From Tubiluchus corallicola (taxonomy: Eukaryota; Animalia; Priapulida), in assembly GCA_030141605.1 (NCBI GenBank), contig JAQGDQ010000523.1, positions 56,803-120,802 on the forward strand: a stretch of DNA of 64,000 bases. The letters are read 5' to 3'. This document shows, one piece after another, positions 2,218 through 24,379 of the stretch; positions within the stretch are counted from its first letter, which is position 1, and each line of letters begins with the position of its first letter. Made by a program: the position numbers and the translations under genes. The notes below the pieces were generated by a model. The model saw only the letters and a program-made list of their open reading frames with translations. It was not told where the DNA came from and did no database searches.

Positions 2218-5200
2218 ATGGTAAGATTTTCAGTTACGATTGAGTGCTTATGATCATATCCTAATATTTAATTTGTTTCTATGCTCATCTGTACTTTTTA
2301 TCTTACACTTGTGTGTTGGTACCTAGGACTAGTAGTGGTAAATACAGTGTTGACTGAGTTACAGAATACAGAGATGCACTCTCAACAGTGAGTCCGTGAT
2401 AAGCATTAATCTAACAACTGCCAGCTTAACCTTTGTTGCCTTTCCGTTCTGTCTACTAGGGAGTATGTGATTTTTCGCCTTGGCTTCTACAGTGGCCCGG
2501 ATTTGAAAAATTGTTAGAACTGCGGCTGTAAAAATTATATATGTCATGAACATTTGCAGTTTAGGTGTAGTTAGGCAAATAGGGCGCTATTACACTTTTG
2601 CACCGCCTAGTTTTTTTCTAGCCTATTGGTTGTTTTCACGCCTGCAGGCCAGAAAGCAGACCAACAGGCGTAATATACACCATATTCCCATAATATTATT
2701 GGTTTTTAGACCTTACAATTCCAGATTAAAATCATACATTACTTACCGTCACCATCACGCAAAAAGCTCCACGTGAATAACTGTGTTTACACCTCTAATG
2801 CGCAATCGCTCTCGCGCAGTGACGATGTGGCCCTTTACATGTATTTTTAGTTTCTTCGCATAATTTATGATTATTAGGGTTGCAGCCACGGGAGTTTGTA
2901 TCGTATCGCGGGTGGGCCTGGAACGGAACACTCACAATAAGTGAGGGAACACTGTATATAATAATTAATTACAAGCATACATATCTGTTTTTCATGTATA
3001 TTAAGTTGTTAGCTGGTCAACTTGTAACAAAAAATAAATTGCTTTCAATATTAAAAATATGTATGTTTATTTTTATTGTATTTTCCGGCTATTTTTTATT
3101 AAACTTACTAAGTGACATCATCACTACCTATCAAATCGTCACTATCATCACTGCCATCGGTCGTAATGTAGTATTATTACTATTAGATTATAAAAAAAGT
3201 AAAGGTTTTTTCGTTATTTCGTAAATGCGGTCAAGATGAAAGTGTGTCACGTGCCTTTTAAGCTAGGCCCTGATAATGCATAAACTACTACGAAATTCGT
3301 CACGTGACTACACACACAAACAAGATGGCAATACGAACTGTATAGGTGTAGAACTGTGAATACAACGTAATTATTGGTAATTATACCTAAATATATGATT
3401 AAATTACCACGAGATTAGCGGAAACATTCACTGATGACGTGAGAATAATAGAATAATGACCTACGAGCCTAGAAACGAGTAATAACCTAGAAAAAACTAG
3501 GCGGTGCGAAAGTGTAATAGCGCCAGCAATTTGTGCCCAAATTATGTAAGAGTCTCTGTTATATTTGGTCTTTTTTTGTTATTAATTCTTTATTTGTCAT
3601 TAAAATGGTTCACTCATTATAATAAAATTGAGTAAGCCTCAGCGTAATGTTAAGATAACGACACTGTTCAAGACAAATGCCGTGCTTAATGCCATCTTGT
3701 TGTGTATTTGATGAAACTGTTCATCCCAAGTGAGTTTATTAACGACAGTAATGCCTAAAAATTTTACATTTTTTGCTTGTTCTATGGAACAGTCGCCTAC
3801 TTTTAGTGTTGCATTAGAATATATAATGTCATTTGATTTGGGTGATGTTACCATAAATTCTGTCTTATCATCATTCATTTTTAAACCAAAATAGTTAAAT
3901 GCTGCATTTATATTTGTTATGTCTTTTTCTAGATTATTTTTTGATGTTAGAAAGTCTGCGTGTGCTGTATAGATAGTTGTGTCATCGTCATATTGTGTTA
4001 AGTCTGAATTATGTAAAACTAAATGAATTTTATTAACGTGTAAACAAAAGAGTAAAGGACCTAATATCGTACCTTGCGGGATGCCTCTCTGTGGTGTGTC
4101 CAATGTTGAAAAAGTGTGTTTGTTCAGCTTGACTCTTTGTTTTCTAGTGTGTAGGTAATTATGAATTAGTTTGAGAGAAGTATAATCAAATCCTAGTTGG
4201 CGTAAGGTGTCTAGTAGTAAATTGTGATCGAGGCTGTCAAAAGCTTTACTTAGATGGAAAAATACTGCTGTTATATATTTATTTTTATTTAAGTTGTAAC
4301 GCCACTTGATTTTCAGTGGCACCAATTATTGCGTCTATTGTAGAATGTAGTATTCTAAAACCGAATTGATGATTTGATAGTATCACTATTTTCAATGTAA
4401 TGGTTTATTTGGTTATAAATAACTCTTTCAAATACTTAGGCTAGTACATGCACTACTGAAATTGGTCTGTAGTTTTAGCGTCATCTTTAGCATCTTTCTT
4501 GTGTATTGGAGTCATGTTTGCTTGTTTACACACTGCTGGAAATTCTGAGCGCATTAAGACTTGGTTTCTGATATATGTTAGATGAGGAGCAATGAATCTT
4601 TAGATCTTTGTATACTTTTCAAATTTACCTTTCAAAGATAATAACTCAGCTGTCCACATGGCTTTGATGCCGAGCCCTCAATTTGCTCGTAATGCACTAA
4701 TCACATCTCCTGGCAAGGCATTCCAGCAGGGAATAATTCTTTCAATGAAAAAGTGACTACTTACGTTAATACAATAGAAACTTTGGAACAGTTTCATCGA
4801 ATGTCTACTTAGATCATAGTGGCAATGAGTTGGAAAGAAGAAGACAGCTTTACTCAAGATGATCAACTCGTTCAAAATTTTGAAACAATGAATAAGATCT
4901 ATAGTTTTGCATCTCTGATAGAGTGGGGTAATGTCTTCAGCTTGTTCGCAGTCATAACTCAAAGGCAACGACTCTGAAACTTTTTAAGTCCAAGTAAATG
5001 TGAGATTTCTCAATTCTATACTCCGAAAGGTTCAATAATCAATTTCCACATTGCAAGATGTTCCTTCAGGAATGAACTTAGTATCTCATGACAAAGCAAC
5101 TCTGTTTGGTACACCTTTGGGCGATCATGCCATTTTGCCTGTTTAGGGAAAAAATTTAGATCAATTAATGCTTTTTCATTCTTCGGCACATGCTGCATGA

Positions 5201-8200
5201 ACGTACTTCAACATTGTTTCTCGTTTCCAAAATTGGTCCATATGTTGAGATCTAAATCCGTTTTCCAAACTACATTTAGCCAATATGACTCTGTTCTTTG
5301 TGAAACTCTTCAGATTATACTAAACATACATAATTTATGTCTGATTCAGTTGGTGACAAGCTTCCTTGGCAGTTTCCAAAGGAGGACTTGGTATAAGAAG
5401 TACCACTCAGCTATCTCTCCCAGCCTTTCTGGCATCATCTAGTGGTTCTGCTTCTTTAGTACACAAAATCCTTTCCAGAGTTCCCACTGCTAGCTCTTAT
5501 GCTGCTTTAGATTTAGCAAAATCGATCTGGTTGGAAAAGTTGAAGCATTTGTAACAACCTTACCTGGTACATCTTCCCAAAAATTTTGGGATAAATCTCT
5601 AATCGAAGCATCATTTGATAGTTTGTTTGCCAGGATTTCTGAGGTTGATAAAGCACTGCTATTGCCAATGGCTTCTAGACATGCTGGTGCATGGCCTGAT
5701 TCTAAGTTGTTTAAAAAGCAGTGGTCGGTTTTTGAAATATCAGGCTGCCAATGATTTGATATGTTGTGCTTTAACTTCTCCTCATGTTGCTTCTGTGTTA
5801 GAGCCCACAAGGTTTGCCTAGGTCAGATGGCAAAAGGCCTGTCCAAATGCCTTTTATTCCTTGGACCAAACGTCGTTCACTTTTTTGGGATTTTGCTTGT
5901 GTGGATACATTGAAATCTTCAAATTTTGCTGTTTCAGCTGGTTCTCTAGGTTATGCGGAAATTAGGAAGTGGGAAATGGGAGATTAGGTCAACAAGTTTT
6001 TTTATTTCAAGGTTTATCCATTGCTTTACAAAGAGGTAATGCGATAAGCATCATGAGAACAATCCCTCCATCTGAAAGACTTGAAGAGGTTATGACCTCC
6101 TTCAAGTCTTAATACCGTCTCTTTCTTTTGGGAGCAATCTGAAAATTGTAAGCTGAAAGGTTTAAATAGTTAACTGTACTATTGTAACTTTAAATGAATG
6201 TATGATGATTGCTAATCATTGCTTTTGAATACTGTTTATTTTACCTAGTGTAGAGTGAATATGGTTATTAGCATTTCAAGATGTCTATGATTTGTATGTA
6301 AACCTAGTATAATATTTAATATACAGTCAATTTGTGATATTTTTGCATTGATTAATGGCAGTTGTATCTCACCAGCTCTGCACCTGTAAATTTCGGTAAT
6401 TGTTTGATTTTTTATGTGAATCGAAGCTGTTTTAACATTAAAATTACGTTACATTATTTGCCATCTCAAAGTTGAAAGATAGTAGCAAGCAAAATATCTT
6501 GATTGTTAAAATTTTTTAACATAATATCTCTGTTTTGCCTAACACAAATTTAGCATGTACACATTAAGGTAGCAGTAATGTCTAACCATCATTTAGTAAC
6601 CTTTAACTTATTTCCTGTGATGTGTCACTAAAGTTTGCTTAAGTTTTCTCTAATCTGCTCCCAGAGCTTTCAAGACAATGATGTGTGATGTCGACCTACA
6701 TCTAGATCTGTGTGCAAAATTTTTGAGAGGAAGTTGAAAACTAAAAATGTGTGGTTCACTGCATATGTCTGTTAGCTATGGTTCCATAGTGATACATAAT
6801 TTGAATTTCTTCATGTGGTAAATTCATTGAGTTAAATTATGTCATGAATGTACAAGGTTGTACGAAGCTGATTGCTAACATGGTGTGGACTATTAGTAAA
6901 TTGATAATAATGCATGCATAATGCTAATATAAAAGATATTTAAATATCAATTAATGTTAAAGGTGGTATGCACTGCTATTCTAATATATGAAAATATTTT
7001 ATAATATATTAAAATGTATAATGAGTTACTACTGAGTAATTGTTTATGGTTAAACTTTACAGCTCGCTTTTTGTTTACATTTAAATGATGAACAGATATT
7101 CTATTTTATTTTCAGAATTGTTTTTATAGCAGATAGCATCATTAGATGAAAATAACCAAGTTGATATTTCAATTTGTTATTTTCATCTTATGTGTGTATT
7201 TGGCAATGATGCCACATTTCATTAATTAATTCTAACGTGATCTATCTTGATATCATCATCATATTTAATTGATGCTGATCAACAAATTTGTTCTTACAGG
7301 GGAACGAAAACTCTCTACCAATGGAAATGTGCAGTCACTGTAAGTTTTCTACTATTTAAGTATTGATATAAATGGTTGCTACTTTTATGCATGTTGCTTT
7401 TTTAAATCCTTTTTTCCAAAAGAAACTGAATTTGTCTACAAAGAAGTGTAGCACAAGTAGATTTGAAGTGAAAATGCTTTCTAGTTAATTTTAGTTATTG
7501 CATCTTGAATTTTTAGAGTGTTGATATAAATATTGCGCTCTGGGCTAATAATAATTTATCCTTGTCACAGTGGATCTTGAGTAAATTATGTTTAAACAAA
7601 CACACAGCTTAGCTCTGTAAACATTGTGTTTACGTAAATGTCATCTGCGCTTGGATATGTCTGGTGTAGCCCTTTTAATTATTATCGTGTGCAGTTTACT
7701 TGTTGACGGTCAACAACATGCTATGTGCTGCTTTATCTTTGGCTCAAAGTCTATCCTGCTGCACGTCAGAATTATCCTTTGCTGAAACCTTAGTTCATTA
7801 TTGCATTGCCACTTGTGAGTTGTTGACCTGGCAAGCTCAAGATTGTTATTGTTACTGTGACTGTGGAAACAATTCAGAACATGCCGAAGTTTTTTACGAA
7901 GATGTTCGGCACGCCGAGCAGTGGAGAAACCGAAAAGTCTACTTATGGGAAACAGAAAAGTAAATACCGTGTTGCCGAGCTAAAATCACGCTCTCGTCAG
8001 CATCGAAGCAACAGTCTGCCGGTAGCTGAAGTCTCTGAATTACCGCAGACAAAATCAGTTCGAGAAGCAAGAGTTCGGAGCAACAGTCTCACTCTAGAGG
8101 TGCCAGATATTGTAGAAACCACACTGCCTCTGGACGTTGAATACATCAAAACTCCTCAGATGCAAACTCTTCAGGTGGCAGAAGATGGCAAGCTAGATGA

Positions 8201-11200
8201 GCGACTTCCAAGCATTACTGAAACTACTGAGAAAGAGCAAAATGCAGATTTAATGAATGATGACAGTCCATTAGATATTTTAAACCTTGTCCCACGTGAA
8301 TGTACGTGTCGACAACTTACGTAATGATGTAAAACATTTGCTTATGAAGCTACATATTGATTACCTTTTTCACTTGCCAGATACTGTCATAAAACAAAAG
8401 CTAGGTACTGGTACTGGGTACCACAAACATTTGCTTATGAAGCTACATATTGATTACCTTTTTCACTTGCCAGAAACTGTCATAAAATAAAAGCTAGGTA
8501 CTGGCACTGGGTACCACAATTTTTCATTGAAGCGATGCTTAAAACAAAATTCAATTTCGTTCTACTTTTGTTAAGCTGTGTACTGGTATTCTTGCATATG
8601 TCATTATAATTCTCTTTTGATGTTTGATTTTAGTTGACGCTGATGAAATTAAGCGACTGGGTAAGCGCTTTCGAAAGCTCGACTTGGACAATTCTGGTTC
8701 CCTTTCTGTCGATGAGTTTATGTCACTTCCTGAATTGCAACAAAATCCTTTGGTACAACGGGTAATAGACATATTTGATACTGATGGAAATGGAGAAGTC
8801 GATTTTAAAGGTTTGTAATAATTGTATTAGTAAAAGGTTTAGTATTACTATATTAAATCATCTTTAAGCTTACAGGCACTGTCAGCCTTTTTTGTAATGT
8901 CTGATCCAAGTGAGCCAGATGTCTTTTCGAACTTCCCAATGCCATTTCATGATGTACACATGCTTTATATACGTCCGCATGTGACAATGGTACCTACCCA
9001 GTTTGTTGTCGCATTGGCCAACAGGCCTCGTTGTTAAAGCACAAGAAAAAACCCTTCATAAATAGAACCTAAAAAAGTCGTGTCTTAAAATTTTATATCA
9101 TTTACTTGTTGTCTTATAGGGTACAGAGCTTGTATTAGCACTAATGCTGTATACAACTTGTGTATTTAAACTCCCGCGATGACCGTTAGGCGCAGCCATT
9201 TTAATGGCAACTCTTTTGCTACAAGTTTAGATAACATTGCGTAAAGTTTGAAAAACATTCACAGCTTTCATTGCACACTTTTGACTAACTAAGCAAAAGT
9301 ATATATTACTTTATCTTGTCAGTAAGATCAATAATGTCTTGGTTAACAAATGACTCACAGTGGGATGGTAATGCAGTGCTGTTTTACCAGGCAGCATGAA
9401 TGTCTTCAATTATTAAGAATTTTCTTATCCAATTACATAAGTCCTTCAAACAGCTAAATGTAATGCTAAGTAATATAACTTGATGCGTAAATTTTTTTGA
9501 GACGTACAAGTGCCATATTCCAACTTATGCTGCACCAAACCATTCATAAATGTAACATGTTGGATCTGGTGAGAATTGTTTTCATAAATAATCATTTGAA
9601 TTCGTACAAGAGAACATGATACAGAGAAGGATTTGTAAAATCTTAGTTTCGGTTATTACCCATGGATTTCTAACTGCTAAATATGAATGTGTTATTTGCT
9701 CACTGGGCAACGAGGTTGCTTACATATCTTGTTTGTTTACGTGTTTGCAGAATTTATCGAGGGTGTCTCACAGTTCAGTGTGAAAGGAGATAAGGAATCC
9801 AAACTCAGGTGTAAGTGCGCATTTTTGTTTACGTACATAATTTTTAACTGATTTCATCATTTTTACTGTGTTCTTTTGCACTCCATGCTTGTCATTTTAT
9901 GCTTACAGTTTCTAATTATTTATATATAGTCTTAATTACAACCTTATTAGTAATGATGGAACAAATCTGCTATGCAGTAGGTGCCGCTTAATAGACTCAC
10001 TCTGGGACGGAAGTGTCTTGACCCAATTAATCAACTAAATCTGTTAACCGACAGATGTAGTATTACTAATATAGAAGTATGAATCGTCGGTTTAGTGGGC
10101 AATGCAAAGGCTTTTAATGAATTTTAGAAACGAAGTAATGCCTAAACTCCTGTGTAATCATTAAAAATATTAATTTATAAAGTGAGTTAATAAAAAAGAA
10201 AATAGAAAAAGTTTGCTTTTTCATACAAGTGTGTTTATTTCCAAAAATTGCATAAATACGACCAAGGTCAGCTTCTTCATTTTTTGCACCAAGTTGGGTC
10301 AGAAACTCTCATAATGATAAAAACGTTGAAAATCTGTTGTTGTATGGTGCACAAATTCTCGTAAATAATTTAGTGCTTGGCATGCTTAAAAGTCAAAAAA
10401 GCATATTGGTCACATGAAAATGTCTTATTGAAGCATGCAGAGCAAAAATATTGAGTCAGTTATGCAGAGTTATTTGAGTCTCTTGTGGACAGTTTTTGCA
10501 TACATTTGCATAGAAGCGGCCGGTACCAGACGTTTTTGAGTCTATTAACCAGGAATCTAGTAAATGGTGCCTACTGTATTTAAATTTTCTGAAACCAATG
10601 TCAACTACATTGAAAGAAATTTCCGTAACTTTCTCAAACAAGGACTTTTGATTACGTCCAAATTTCTGACCACTGGACTGCGTCCAAATTTCTGACCATT
10701 GGACTGCTCATGTGCTTGCAATCTGAAAGTTGATTGCAAGATAACTAAGTGTGATCCAGGGTCTAACATGATTGTTTAATAATCCAAAGGTCAGTGGTTC
10801 AAACTCGAGTTCATCCCGTCTTTTTTGCACTTCCTATCTTTCTGCTGAATTTGGTTTTGCAAGAAAATCAATTATTCTGGGTTTATTTACCATGCCAACG
10901 ACTTTTTTTGAGGTAATAGACATATTCAGTTCACTGTTTTGAAACTACCTGTTTGACTTACCTTGAGTGAAAAGGAAAAATGCCTGCTTGTCTCATGACC
11001 AGATTAAAGAGCTGCATGGTGTATTAGGATCATTTATATGGTACAGTGTTCCCTCACTTATCATGGGTGTTCCATTCCAGGCCTACCTGCGATAAGTGAA
11101 TTTCCGCGAAGTAGGGACGCTATACTTATTTTAGTAGTTATACATTATTTTAAGTCTTTATAAACCCAGAAACCGTAGAAGTTGCAGAACGTTTGGGTGG

Positions 11201-13790
11201 CATCGAAGGGCTTGAATAAATTCAGTCTCTAACGAAAATTTCACAAATAGCGTACACAAACTACAGATGAAAACTACACACACGCGACAGTCGGATGCTA
11301 ACGTGAAATGGAAGAGCTGAGAGGGTGGTAGCTGCACACAGTGAAAGCAAACAAATTGCACGGTATCTCACGGTCGGCAAGTAGCATCTCAAGCGGGCGC
11401 AAGTACTACATTTCGTTTTTGGTGTGTTTTCATCCGCCGAATAAATACACTATTTACTGTAACTGGTAATTTTTATGATTTATAATATTCTTTTAATGTT
11501 AGAATTAATATTTTTAATATATTTTTATGCATTTTGAGATTTTTTATTCAAAATGCATCAAATCTATACAATTACTGTACAATACGTACTACGCACGTGC
11601 TTGTACTACGCATGTACTACGCAAAATACTTCAGATGGAGTACCGCGAAACAAGTAAAATACTGCGATAAATATTTTGCATTAATATTTTTGAAAACCCG
11701 CGAAACAGCGTGTCCGTGATAAACAAACCACGAAGTAGCGAGGGAACACTGTATATTTAATCTAACAACACTTTTGCGTTGACCATAAGTATCTGCTAAG
11801 GAGCACAATTTTGCACAAGTTATATTTTCCATATTTGATTTTATAAAATTAAGTTATATAAAACATTACATTATTGACTTTTTATTTAGTTTTTTTCTGT
11901 TGTTTCTAGTTGCTTTCAGAATTTATGACATGGACAAAGATGGCTATATATCAAATGGGGAACTCTTCCAGGTAAAAACTTATTTGCGACTTTGGCTTTA
12001 AAAAATTCCGAGCCTAATTTGAGAATCCCACAAGGCTGCTTCTGATAGTTAAAAATAAATTTCTATTTCTCTTTTCTCATTCTTCAATTAACGGCATCTT
12101 AACTTATGATTGCTTTGCATGCAAGGGTTGCAGTCATACTAGCTTTTCAGTTAGCCCGTCATTACTATGCTAACATATTTGTTGCGCTACAACTTACAAG
12201 CTGACTCTGAGTGGTATATCTGACTGCAAACGTGATGTAAAATCTGTACACCATGAAGAGGCTGCCAGTTTGTTTTTTGCACATTATTATATTTACATTT
12301 TGACAATTGAACATTGTGTTGTAAAGACACAAAGAGTAAAAAATGTTTCAACTTGCTACTTAGTTTCTTTGTTTATATTGCAACTTAAAGGAAGACAGGA
12401 TGATTTTTCACGTCCTACCCCATTTTCAAGTCCGATAAAAAATACATTTTAACTCGACTAATATTGCAAAAGCGTTTCTTATAATTAAATAATAGATTAA
12501 AAACTTAATTAAAGGAGAGCGAGCCTAACTATTGATGACATCACAAACTAACATAATTTTCAACAGCAAAAATATTCCATGAGTGTGTTTGCGAAAGTGA
12601 GGACTACTGTAAGATATTCAGTGTGTTGTACTAAAACTAGACAAGTTTTAAGATAAAACTTCAGATTTTAAATTTACCGCTGTGCTTACACGTGAGCTGT
12701 CGAACGTGTGTAGTTCGTCAGAAACTAACACATCTGAACTGAGAGGTTCAGTATCTGTTTTTTGTGCAATGCTATTCCAAAATGCAAGTGCTAGTGCCTA
12801 TCTAACTAGTGAATGGTAAAATACATGTAACAGTGAAGAACTAGAGGCACGAATGTTAATTATGTTTATGTGGTAAATAATTCTTTCACGAAAGTCATTT
12901 TTGAAAAAACAGTATGTTTCCTTTCAATATTTAATGAGTAGATTGTTGTGACCTTCAGTTTTGCTTTAATTAAACTTGTACAGCAACATAGGGGCTTCAG
13001 TACTTCAATACATTAGACGATATTTTGACCAATTGCATGCCTGGGTTAGTGTTATACCTCACTAGCTATGCAGGACACACGCAACTGCATTTTCTTTGCT
13101 ACATTATGAGTTCAGAACTGATTCATTTTAGTGACATTTTTTGGTTTTGCACTAACGATTTCTTCTTACAGGTATTGAAAATGATGGTGGGTTCAAATTT
13201 GAAAGACACCCAGCTCCAGCAAATTGTTGACAAAACCATTATCTATGCTGATAAAGACAACGACGGAAAAATCTCATTCGAGGAATTCTGTACAGTAAGT
13301 TTTCTTGCGCATTAATATTAGAGGTGCATTCAAATTATACACAGTGTCAACAACGACGTTTGTTTACCAATTACTCTATGGATAGTTTTCACATTTATGT
13401 AGAAAAAATTTGCAGACTAGGTGGGCCTAAAAGTGTATGTATTATAAGTCAAATCTATGCTGGTACCCCATTGTTATTGAATGCCAGCATGATTGCGCCA
13501 AAGAATTTTATGTTGAAAAAATGATCATAATTGCTTTTTACCAGTGTGCACTTAATAGCATTACCATTACTCAAGTGTGGTTTTTTGTGCATATGTATCT
13601 TCAGTTTTCAGTGTTATAAATTACTAATTTGTTGCTGGTTTACAGTGCTTTTTCCATTTTTAATGCTTCTAAATTGATTTTATTCATCATTAGTTTGACC
13701 TAATAGTACTTTAAGTGCATTTAAAATGTTTTCTTTATTTAGGTGGTTGGCAATACAGATGTTCATAAAAAGATGGTGGTGGACGTCTAA
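2218..13790 (+). CDS. PPP3R1: Calcineurin subunit B, 170 aa; exons 2218-2220, 7300-7339, 8634-8810, 9751-9810, 11910-11971, 13172-13294, 13743-13790
   Basis: All introns GT-AG and phase-compatible; total 513 nt = 170 aa + stop. M|[14 protein letters not shown]|[28 protein letters not shown]...[15 protein letters not shown]: four EF-hands and a myristoylated Gly2. Exon 1 (ATG|gtaaga) is the least certain exon. Confidence 0.96.
2583..3524. mobile_element. MITE with ~38-bp terminal inverted repeats, containing one end of a Tc1/mariner-pogo-type MITE (to 2954)
   Basis: GGCGCTATTACACTTTTGCACCGCCTAGTTTTTTTCTAG at 2583 is the inverse of CTAGAAAAAACTAGGCGGTGCGAAAGTGTAATAGCGCC ending at 3524. Segment ~2905-2954 is the reverse complement of the start of the 11044 element. 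Confidence 0.7.
3560..4600 (-). mobile_element. Decayed LINE reverse transcriptase fragment (CR1/L2/Jockey group)
   Basis: [36 protein letters not shown] (YADD-like) and KFLG motifs, with frameshifts and stops. Confidence 0.9.
4640..4990 (-). mobile_element. CR1-like LINE 3' fragment
   Basis: [10 protein letters not shown]...RHSMKLF...[14 protein letters not shown] is the typical C-terminus of CR1-clade ORF2. Confidence 0.75.
5050..6100 (+). mobile_element. Decayed CRE-like (restriction-like endonuclease) non-LTR retrotransposon fragment
   Basis: Frameshifted remnants: [44 protein letters not shown]...[14 protein letters not shown]. Confidence 0.75.
7881..8301 (+). CDS. Candidate alternative N-terminal exon of calcineurin B (140 codons + 1 nt)
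   Basis: Stop-free ORF (ATG 7881 to TAA 8324) with coding-like composition in an AT-rich intron. Donor GAAT|gtacgt at 8301/8302 is phase 1, matching exon 3 (T|TT GAC = F-D). Confidence 0.6.
8332..8518. repeat. Tandem duplication, 93-bp unit x2
   Basis: AAACATTTGCTTATGAAGCTACATATTG...GGGTACCAC occurs at 8332 and 8425. Confidence 0.9.
9975..10576. mobile_element. pogo/Tigger-like non-autonomous DNA transposon
   Basis: Imperfect TIRs CAGTAGGTGCCGCTTAATAGA ... TCTAGTAAATGGTGCCTACTG, followed by TA. Confidence 0.55.
11044..11751. mobile_element. Tc1/mariner-pogo-type MITE
   Basis: TA|CAGTGTTCCCTC ... GAGGGAACACTG|TA: TIRs with a TA target duplication. Confidence 0.8.
12385..12969 (+). mobile_element. 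TTAA-flanked non-autonomous DNA transposon (Kolobok-like), copy A
   Basis: TTAA|AGGAAGACAGG...CAGTTTTGCT|TTAA; clearly homologous to four other copies in the window. Confidence 0.8.
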
Positions 13791-17504: not shown

Positions 17505-19480
<1,976 letters not shown>

Positions 19481-20788: not shown

Positions 20789-22531
<1,743 letters not shown>

Positions 22532-23338: not shown

Positions 23339-24379
23339 ATGAATCAACTGGATGACATCTTGGAACTTGCAGAATGGAAGAACTCCTCAGTAAGCCCAGA
23401 GCTGCACAATAAATCAAATTTTTCATATTCTCTTGATGACACTGGGCTCCACACGGGCTGCAAAAGTGTTTTAGAACATGACCTAGCTCATTTGATATCC
23501 AACTCAGTTAATCTATTACTCGGTGCCGGTATTGTAACTGGTAACTTTTTAATACTTATAACAATCATCTGCACGCCTTCACTTCACGAAGTGCCTTTCT
23601 ATTTAATTGCAAATCTGGGTGTCGCAGATTCATCAACCGGCCTAGGATTGGTCGTTCTGTTCGTGGGATTTCTGGCTGGTGTTCGATGCAAAATTATCTT
23701 CTGCACATGCGTCATTGGCCTAATGACGTTTAACATTTATGGTTCCATAACGCTGTACATGGCGGTAACGATCGAAAGATATATAGCCATTGTTTACCCG
23801 CTACACTATCCTAATTGGGTCACACAAAAAACTGGCAAAGTTGCTATTATTTTGACATGGGCTGTTACAATTCTTATGACAGTATCAGGTGCAATAACGT
23901 ATTATATAAGCGACTACACAGGATTATCTTGCATACATTTTTCCAGATATTTTGGCAAGCAAGTTTTTGCCGGAACCACTGGAATGGGGGCAATTCTCAT
24001 TCCATTGTTGGTATTTTGTTACTCTCACATTGGACTTGCCGCAGTGAGGCAGCAAAAATCTATTTCTGCTTTGAATAGCTTAAACCACAGTAGAGCGCCA
24101 CGAGGCGACGATTTCAAACAAAAGTTGAAAATAGCAAAAGTGCTTGGAATGACAGTTATTCTATTCTTAGCATTCTGGTTCCCTTTTTTAGTACTGCTTC
24201 CGTTCCATTATCTTTGCGAGTTTCACAAGTTGTGTTTTATAACAGTAAAAACTCAACTTTTGAATTTTACTTTGCTGCTAGGCATGTGCAACTCTTTCGT
24301 AAATGTGTTTGTATACTCGGGGAAATTAGGAACGTTTCGACGCGCAATGAAAGCCGTTATGTGTCGTAGACAAGGATGA
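23339..24379 (+). CDS. Class A (rhodopsin-like) orphan GPCR, single coding exon, 346 aa
   Basis: Seven hydrophobic segments; GN (TM1), NLGVAD (TM2), ERYIAIVYPLHY (TM3/ICL2), W (TM4), FWFP (TM6), NSFVNVFVY (TM7), FRRA helix 8. Confidence 0.93.
   Translation: MNQLDDILELAEWKNSSVSPELHNKSNFSYSLDDTGLHTGCKSVLEHDLAHLISNSVNLLLGAGIVTGNFLILITIICTPSLHEVPFYLIANLGVADSSTGLGLVVLFVGFLAGVRCKIIFCTCVIGLMTFNIYGSITLYMAVTIERYIAIVYPLHYPNWVTQKTGKVAIILTWAVTILMTVSGAITYYISDYTGLSCIHFSRYFGKQVFAGTTGMGAILIPLLVFCYSHIGLAAVRQQKSISALNSLNHSRAPRGDDFKQKLKIAKVLGMTVILFLAFWFPFLVLLPFHYLCEFHKLCFITVKTQLLNFTLLLGMCNSFVNVFVYSGKLGTFRRAMKAVMCRRQG

Follow-up and report, generated by a model that had tools for sequence, protein, structure and literature searches.

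The second intron of a calcineurin B (CnB) gene of the priapulid Tubiluchus corallicola probably contains a further coding exon which, on the evidence of the DNA sequence, is most simply read as an alternative first exon of that gene. The stretch of DNA analyzed here, called the window, comprises 64,000 nucleotides of contig JAQGDQ010000523.1 (assembly GCA_030141605.1; positions 56,803 to 120,802 of the forward strand), and all coordinates given below are window positions. Few animal proteins are as conserved as calcineurin B, which is generally taken to be an invariant subunit of 170 residues; regulation through isoforms has been described chiefly for calcineurin A (CnA). The joining of the segment at 7881 to 8301 to exon 3 of the gene is predicted to yield a product of 296 residues. 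Taking together the three readings that splice the segment to exon 3, we regard the existence of such a long CnB isoform as quite likely, and the isoform would probably be new and lineage specific.

The gene itself (PPP3R) lies on the plus strand in seven exons, which, once joined, give an open frame of 170 residues. The encoded protein shares up to 158 identities with a stored CnB protein, matches EF-hand families in Pfam, and presents the features that define a calcineurin B gene, namely, a length of about 170 residues, four EF hands, and the N-terminal Gly2. The sequence around the gene is AT-rich, repeat-rich animal DNA. Splice joints of the gene could be taken from run X2, a set of 13 million letters that carries the same species label, is RNA by a guessed label, and shows GT..AG joints; a single X2 contig bears the joints 2220>7300, 7339>8634, and 8810>9751. 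As a separate observation on the structure of the gene, an extra intron divides 185 coding bases (11910 to 13294) into 62 + 123 bases, while the corresponding 185 bases of human PPP3R1 form one exon. Intron 1 carries a fragment of a reverse transcriptase (RVT_1) of the long interspersed element (LINE) type at 3642 to 4325 on the minus strand.

In intron 2, the initial annotation had noticed a stop-free frame of 140 codons ending at a donor in the phase needed to reach exon 3, and both observations are borne out. The frame occupies positions 7881 to 8300 inside a longer stop-free stretch (7827 to 8321) and ends as GAA T/GTACGT at 8301, in phase 1 like the donor of exon 2, so that T + TT encodes Phe and exon 3 continues in frame. 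The segment runs from an ATG to an in-phase donor, its composition is coding-like, and four EF-hand exons lie downstream. A run of 165 stop-free codons was never obtained in 3,000 dinucleotide shuffles of each of three regions, and a run of 141 stop-free codons was obtained in 14, 4, and 2 of 3,000. Furthermore, a frame with an ATG, 140 or more open codons, and a phase 1 donor matching GTAAGT at five of six positions appeared in 2 of 36,220 shuffled versions of intron 2 and in 3 of 67,006 of the region from 7600 to 8400. Given a stop-free frame, the joint absence of Cys and Trp from the 140 codons was reproduced in 14 of 5,000 draws; the content of E, K, S, T, D, and P (at least 71 residues) had a chance of 12 in 5,000, and the base bias across codon positions was equaled in 91 of 20,000 stop-free random frames. 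In each of the other five reading frames, this DNA contains 4 to 10 stops, and the GC content at third codon positions is 0.38 in the segment versus 0.43 in the CnB coding sequence and 0.39 in the coding sequence of a G-protein-coupled receptor (GPCR) in the window. These coding tests (shuffles, Cys and Trp, and codon bias) are mutually dependent; taken together, they suggest that the segment is probably a real coding exon.

Variation and copy number were assessed with run X1, which behaves as DNA, since its contigs run across introns and show no CnB joints. The single X1 contig over positions 7980 to 8361 (382 bases) shows no difference from the window. Five unique-looking contigs on the flanks show 48 differences in 1,700 bases, individual flanks differing by 1 to 4%, a count that excludes three contigs lying on repeats and two partial matches of short length; between 7633 and 7954, there are 3 differences in 322 bases. 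With the flanks pooled, the chance of zero differences over 322 bases is about 1e-4. The ends of X1 contigs at 7954 and 7980, which flank third codon positions, were also considered and were set aside as too weak a signal. The differences of X2 from the window, 7 of 65 bases in exon 3 (8634 to 8698) and 25 of 250 bases between 13743 and 13992 (last exon and 3' untranslated region), are far above those of X1 and perhaps indicate a cryptic lineage. The initial annotation had named a match to a multicopy repeat as a reason to discard its proposal, and this check found the segment not to be multicopy: the window holds no second copy, and five X1 contigs, one of them on the exon, fall on 6250 to 8335, whereas the true repeats of the window have summed depths of hundreds to thousands. 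Searches of Pfam found no mobile-element protein domain in the encoded arm (the sole match, cwf18, had an E value of 0.51, below the cut-off), and Rfam gave no match to the segment. A tandem pair of 93-base units, 97% alike, stands directly after the putative donor, at 8332 to 8517. The exons of the gene and the features proposed in and around the segment are collected in Table 1.

Table 1. Window coordinates of the calcineurin B exons and of the features proposed for the intron 2 segment
Feature	Position	Strand	Basis
CnB exon 1, coding part (ATG only)	2218..2220	+	Spliced joint 2220>7300 in run X2
CnB exon 2, Gly2 to His14 plus one base, myristoylation-type N terminus	7300..7339	+	X2 joints 2220>7300 and 7339>8634
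CnB exon 3, EF hands	8634..8810	+	X2 joints; Pfam EF-hand
CnB exon 4	9751..9810	+	X2 joint 8810>9751
CnB exon 5	11910..11971	+	GT/AG ends; open 170-residue frame over seven exons
CnB exon 6	13172..13294	+	Part of open 170-residue frame
CnB exon 7, coding part with stop	13743..13790	+	Part of open 170-residue frame
Possible 5' untranslated region or internal promoter side of alternative exon	7726..7880	+	ATG free, GC about 40%; weak support
Putative alternative first coding exon (140 codons and one further base)	7881..8301	+	Open frame, shuffles, X1 contig with 0 differences
N-terminal 10 residues of arm, predicted short amphipathic segment	7881..7910	+	Hydrophobic moment third highest among arm 9-mers; function inferred
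Second phase 1 donor-like site AAA/GTAAAT, would yield a 26-codon version of the exon	7960..7965	+	5/6 match to GTAAGT, without G at +5
RSNSLP, fits RSxSxP	8004..8021	+	Chance 0.006 strict, 0.12 for RxxS/TxP
RVRSNSL, fits RxRxxS	8070..8090	+	Chance 0.09; second RSNSL, offset from the first by 72 bases
LEVPDIVET, LxVP then PxIxIT-like run with Glu at position 5	8094..8120	+	Sequence match
PSITET, PxIxIT-like with Glu at position 5	8208..8225	+	Fails published pattern
Putative donor GTACGT, phase 1	8302..8307	+	5/6 match to GTAAGT

The arm that the segment would encode is predicted to be unstructured (predicted local distance difference test, 57; predicted template-modeling score, 0.11, in a single-sequence model), which agrees with the earlier proposal of a disordered arm able to replace the myristoylated N terminus; it is basic in residues 21 to 40 and acidic after residue 100. 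The motif positions assigned in the initial annotation are all exact, those of LEVP and PDIVET being 8094 to 8105 and 8103 to 8120, respectively. By residue shuffle, single motifs are near chance level, with the exception of RSxSxP (0.006). RSx(pS)xP is the 14-3-3 mode 1 type of consensus, RxRxxS is the basophilic kinase type, and the 14-3-3 motif claimed for the arm is present in RSNSLP as a sequence match. The claim of an LxVP site stands in part: LEVP fits the loose pattern L.[ILV]P in a predicted disordered region, but LTLEVP, with Leu at -2, fails the extended pi-phi-LxVP form. The two claimed PxIxIT sites do not stand, since neither PDIVET nor PSITET, both with Glu at position 5, fits P[^PG][FILV][^PG][FILV][^PG]. 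The loose pattern is given 13,014 matches in the human proteome, described as nearly all nonbinding (Wigington et al., bioRxiv 10.1101/632547), and the extended form is given as [NQDESRTH][YTDFILV]LxVP (PMC5156906); the extended form overlooks 16 of 25 validated peptides, and degenerate motif variants are reported beside one good motif (bioRxiv 10.1101/632547). An internal duplication of the arm (RSNSL twice and P.I.ETT twice, with synonymous differences) was considered and is not significant by BLOSUM self-alignment (28 of 300, and in a larger test 14,967 and 11,116 of 36,526). The exact patterns RSNSL and P.I.ETT occurred together in 440 of 565,025, but they had been picked after being seen.

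Relatives of the arm were sought in several collections. Among proteins of 246 to 2,000 residues, none of the 671 candidates resembled it, and a profile of the arm with CnB, covering proteins of 565 to 2,000 residues, drew 51 matches, none of them arm-like. None of 194 pattern matches in metagenomes and none of eight in the viral scan held the arm, and the ESM Atlas returned one match at 0.75 and then none. The sole match among 1.84 billion representatives (P0004; E value, 3e-10) was rejected: it consists of a 54-residue tandem repeat, its score adds up weak stretches (the best at 18.8 bits), it lacks EF hands, and it stands as a singleton. For long CnB records, the best 120 of 681 were examined, longer ones ranking lower: 93 of them have an altered N terminus (48 lengthened ahead of exon 2, 40 with exon 2 replaced, and 5 with inserts), 20 have the canonical start, and 7 are unclassified, and none of the 120 showed likeness to the arm (best E value, 0.25). 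Several of the amphipod and crab records (P0176 to P0184) share a 9-residue insert between exons 2 and 3 that looks like a conserved microexon, and some of these crustacean records carry a lysine-rich alternative N terminus without Gly2.

The manner in which the segment would enter a transcript, and whether it belongs to CnB at all, can be read in more than one way. The initial annotation had pointed to CAG/AAC at 7877/7878 as an acceptor that would make the segment mutually exclusive with exon 2. The site is present and in frame with the ATG of exon 1, but it is a poor acceptor, with 6 pyrimidines of 15 and 4 T compared with 9 to 13 pyrimidines and 7 to 11 T at the six true acceptors of the gene, and the mutually exclusive route is unsupported, X2 showing only the joint 2220>7300 from exon 1. 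An untranslated exon could also be spliced to 7770 or 7794, where CAG/TAG sites have 10 pyrimidines of 15; no T-rich acceptor resembling the true ones was found that would place the arm in frame after exon 2. Splicing from upstream, in either form, is in our judgment the least probable of the explanations weighed here. The simplest interpretation is an alternative first exon, and in the 155 bases ahead of its ATG there is no other ATG (P of about 0.06 by shuffle). That the frame is coding without being a CnB exon, as a small intronless nested gene of 147 codons or as an exon no longer spliced, is decidedly unlikely. The frame runs seven codons beyond the donor to a stop at 8322 to 8324, an AATAAA follows at 8486, and no junction at 8301 was seen in X2. 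However, a right-phase donor with a 5/6 match, of a kind found at 0.004 per base in the CnB gene, lies seven codons before the stop; two Cys fall within the seven codons past the donor compared with none in the preceding 140, and the AATAAA sits in one copy of the 93-base duplication. We hold it very doubtful that the segment is noncoding intron or a decayed piece of a mobile element that is open by chance. The CnB introns do hold many repeats and reverse transcriptase fragments, the searches found no homologue of the arm, no transcript of it was seen in X2, and windows were chosen from a large scan; against this, several coding signatures agree, a second copy in the window and repeat-like X1 depth are both absent, and there is no Pfam family above the cut-off, no Rfam match, and no viral match.

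A further explanation, in essence that of the initial annotation, accepts the exon and gives the arm a specific task, with LEVP and the adjacent PDIVET, as a calcimembrin-like composite, docking onto the enzyme's own holoenzyme in cis and limiting substrate access, gated by phosphorylation of RSNSL and 14-3-3. In favor of it, LEVP fits L.[ILV]P. The strongest argument, which the initial annotation had not raised, is that LEVPDIVET equals calcimembrin's LDVPDIIIT at five of nine positions and adds E/D and V/I exchanges (chance of the pattern, chosen post hoc, 0.003). The 65 residues between LEVP and the EF-hand core would be enough to reach the groove, tethering can render weak motifs effective, RSxSxP is rarely matched by chance, and autoinhibition by an LxVP in cis is known in CnA-beta1 (PMC8523714). 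However, shuffled residues of the arm carry LxVP at a frequency of 0.07 and L.[ILV]P at 0.18, and 2 and 12, respectively, of the 93 other CnB N-terminal additions among the best 120 of 681 records carry them. Human matches to L.[ILV]P are described as almost all nonbinding (bioRxiv 10.1101/632547), and LTLEVP fails the extended form, even though that form misses many validated peptides. The arm has no match to the PxIxIT pattern, which 30% of shuffles contain, and the binding of calcimembrin depends on the IxIT part (PMC12612047), where the arm has Glu. The case for self-docking is much weaker than that for the coding exon, and we consider self-docking rather unlikely. Its full form, with an internal promoter, occupation of the groove in cis by LEVPDIVET, and release by RSNSL phosphorylation and 14-3-3, is a still more tentative proposal; if true, it would build autoinhibition into the regulatory subunit as a counterpart of CnA-beta1 and would give kinases a direct input onto calcineurin.

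To return to the alternative first exon, we see an even chance that it gives a CnB that is otherwise intact a phosphorylatable arm for targeting in exchange for the lipid anchor. Several observations weigh against this reading. The 8301 donor deviates by a T at -1 and a C at +4, and there is no clear promoter signal, the observed-to-expected CpG ratio upstream being 0.44 versus 1.0 at the known promoter. The sole spliced contig, from X2, joins 7339 to 8634 and skips the segment, which X2 does not cover at 85% or 80% likeness; as X2 is shallow and diverged, this shows that the short form is made and not that the long form is absent. Every shuffle figure is weakened by the choice of the window from a large scan. 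If only the nearest flank is counted, the chance of zero differences rises to 0.028; the figure comes from one run, and the contig concerned holds 60 intron bases and sites that, lying on one haplotype, are not independent. Finally, no homologue of the arm appeared in any search; this is a weak negative, because disordered arms evolve fast and genomes of close relatives lay outside the searches.

On the reading as an alternative first exon, transcription would begin inside the gene, upstream of 7881, probably in a particular tissue or stage, and the 8301 donor would be used and joined to exon 3. The myristoylated N terminus of 14 residues would be replaced by the predicted disordered arm, giving a nonmyristoylated CnB of 296 residues whose CnA-binding core should still function, since the sequence from Phe15 onward stays the same. 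With its basic amphipathic N terminus, its acidic C terminus, and two RSNSL sites, the arm could take the place of the lipid as a phosphorylatable tail for targeting and as an adaptor, and it would likely alter the location and kinase control of this pool of calcineurin. The single LxVP may add a weak tethered contact, which the explanation does not require. A 2021 review describes the role of CnB myristoylation in localization and substrate choice as still open (PMC8583826). It is possible to hypothesize that a natural nonmyristoylated isoform with a long arm, if true, would offer a handle on this question, and a self-docking arm, if true, would represent a new layer of calcineurin control.

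Elsewhere in the window, we could identify a second LINE-type RVT_1 fragment at 20948 to 22231 on the plus strand and a frame of 277 codons at 18240 to 19070 on the same strand, without a Pfam match, which looks like a decayed hAT-type transposase. The GPCR mentioned above is a single-frame receptor of the rhodopsin family (346 residues; 23339 to 24379, plus strand; 7tm_1, E value of 4e-33), and its exact sequence had no match in the protein collection. A multiexon gene on the minus strand (about 27000 to 63700) encodes MAM domains, an EGF-like piece, and glycine-rich exons and presumably resembles the ALK/LTK receptor kinase.

Inhibitors of the RCAN type block substrate docking instead of the active site. 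The viral inhibitor A238L acts in the same manner, as a self-docking arm would, but it does so in trans and with nanomolar affinity and carries a complete PKIIIT on the N-terminal side of its LxVP-type site, whereas the arm has no valid PxIxIT (PMC3582496). Pfam revealed no sequence likeness of the arm to A238L- or RCAN-type families. Closer in register is calcimembrin (C16orf74), where in LDVPDIIIT, as in LEVPDIVET of the arm, LxVP and PxI share a proline within a disordered chain; different from the arm, calcimembrin has Ile at position 5 of PxIxIT, followed by PP(p)T, which the arm lacks, and is a separate lipidated protein and not part of CnB (PMC12612047). The proposed window isoform would resemble CnA-beta1, a splice variant that uses intronic sequence as a new tail, which carries an LxVP (LAVP) and changes localization. 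In CnA-beta1, however, the tail is the C terminus of the catalytic subunit, is conserved in vertebrates, and has a measured autoinhibition, whereas the arm of the window is predicted from sequence (PMC8523714).

The annotated long CnB models of arthropods and vertebrates, among the best 120 of 681 records, have altered N termini too, including the 40 that replace exon 2; different from the arm, these N termini are mostly short and mutually unrelated, and many appear to be gene-model artifacts. The initial annotation knew of no CnB isoform like the proposed one, and this holds for the docking-like motifs: no published CnB isoform with such motifs was found in the literature searched, whose scope did not extend to subscription papers and supplements. 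It does not hold for length and the loss of Gly2, since a long CnB without Gly2 is known from the rat as calcineurin B alpha 2, which was reportedly described by Chang et al. in 1994. In this protein (Ppp3r1 isoform 2; 216 residues; BAA03318.1), an alternative 5' exon provides a longer N terminus without Gly2, as proposed here, and related alternative N termini without Gly2 occur in records of other rodents, Mastomys and Peromyscus. However, rat B alpha 2, a form restricted to the testis, adds about 47 residues, splices to exon 2, keeps the GNEAS...CSH segment, and has no LxVP, whereas the window isoform would lack exon 2 and have an arm of 140 residues. The arm showed no significant match to the rodent alpha 2 N terminus, and any similarity between the two is one of design and not of descent. 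An arm that only retargets the enzyme would, if true, be a parallel to rodent B alpha 2 that is specific to this lineage.

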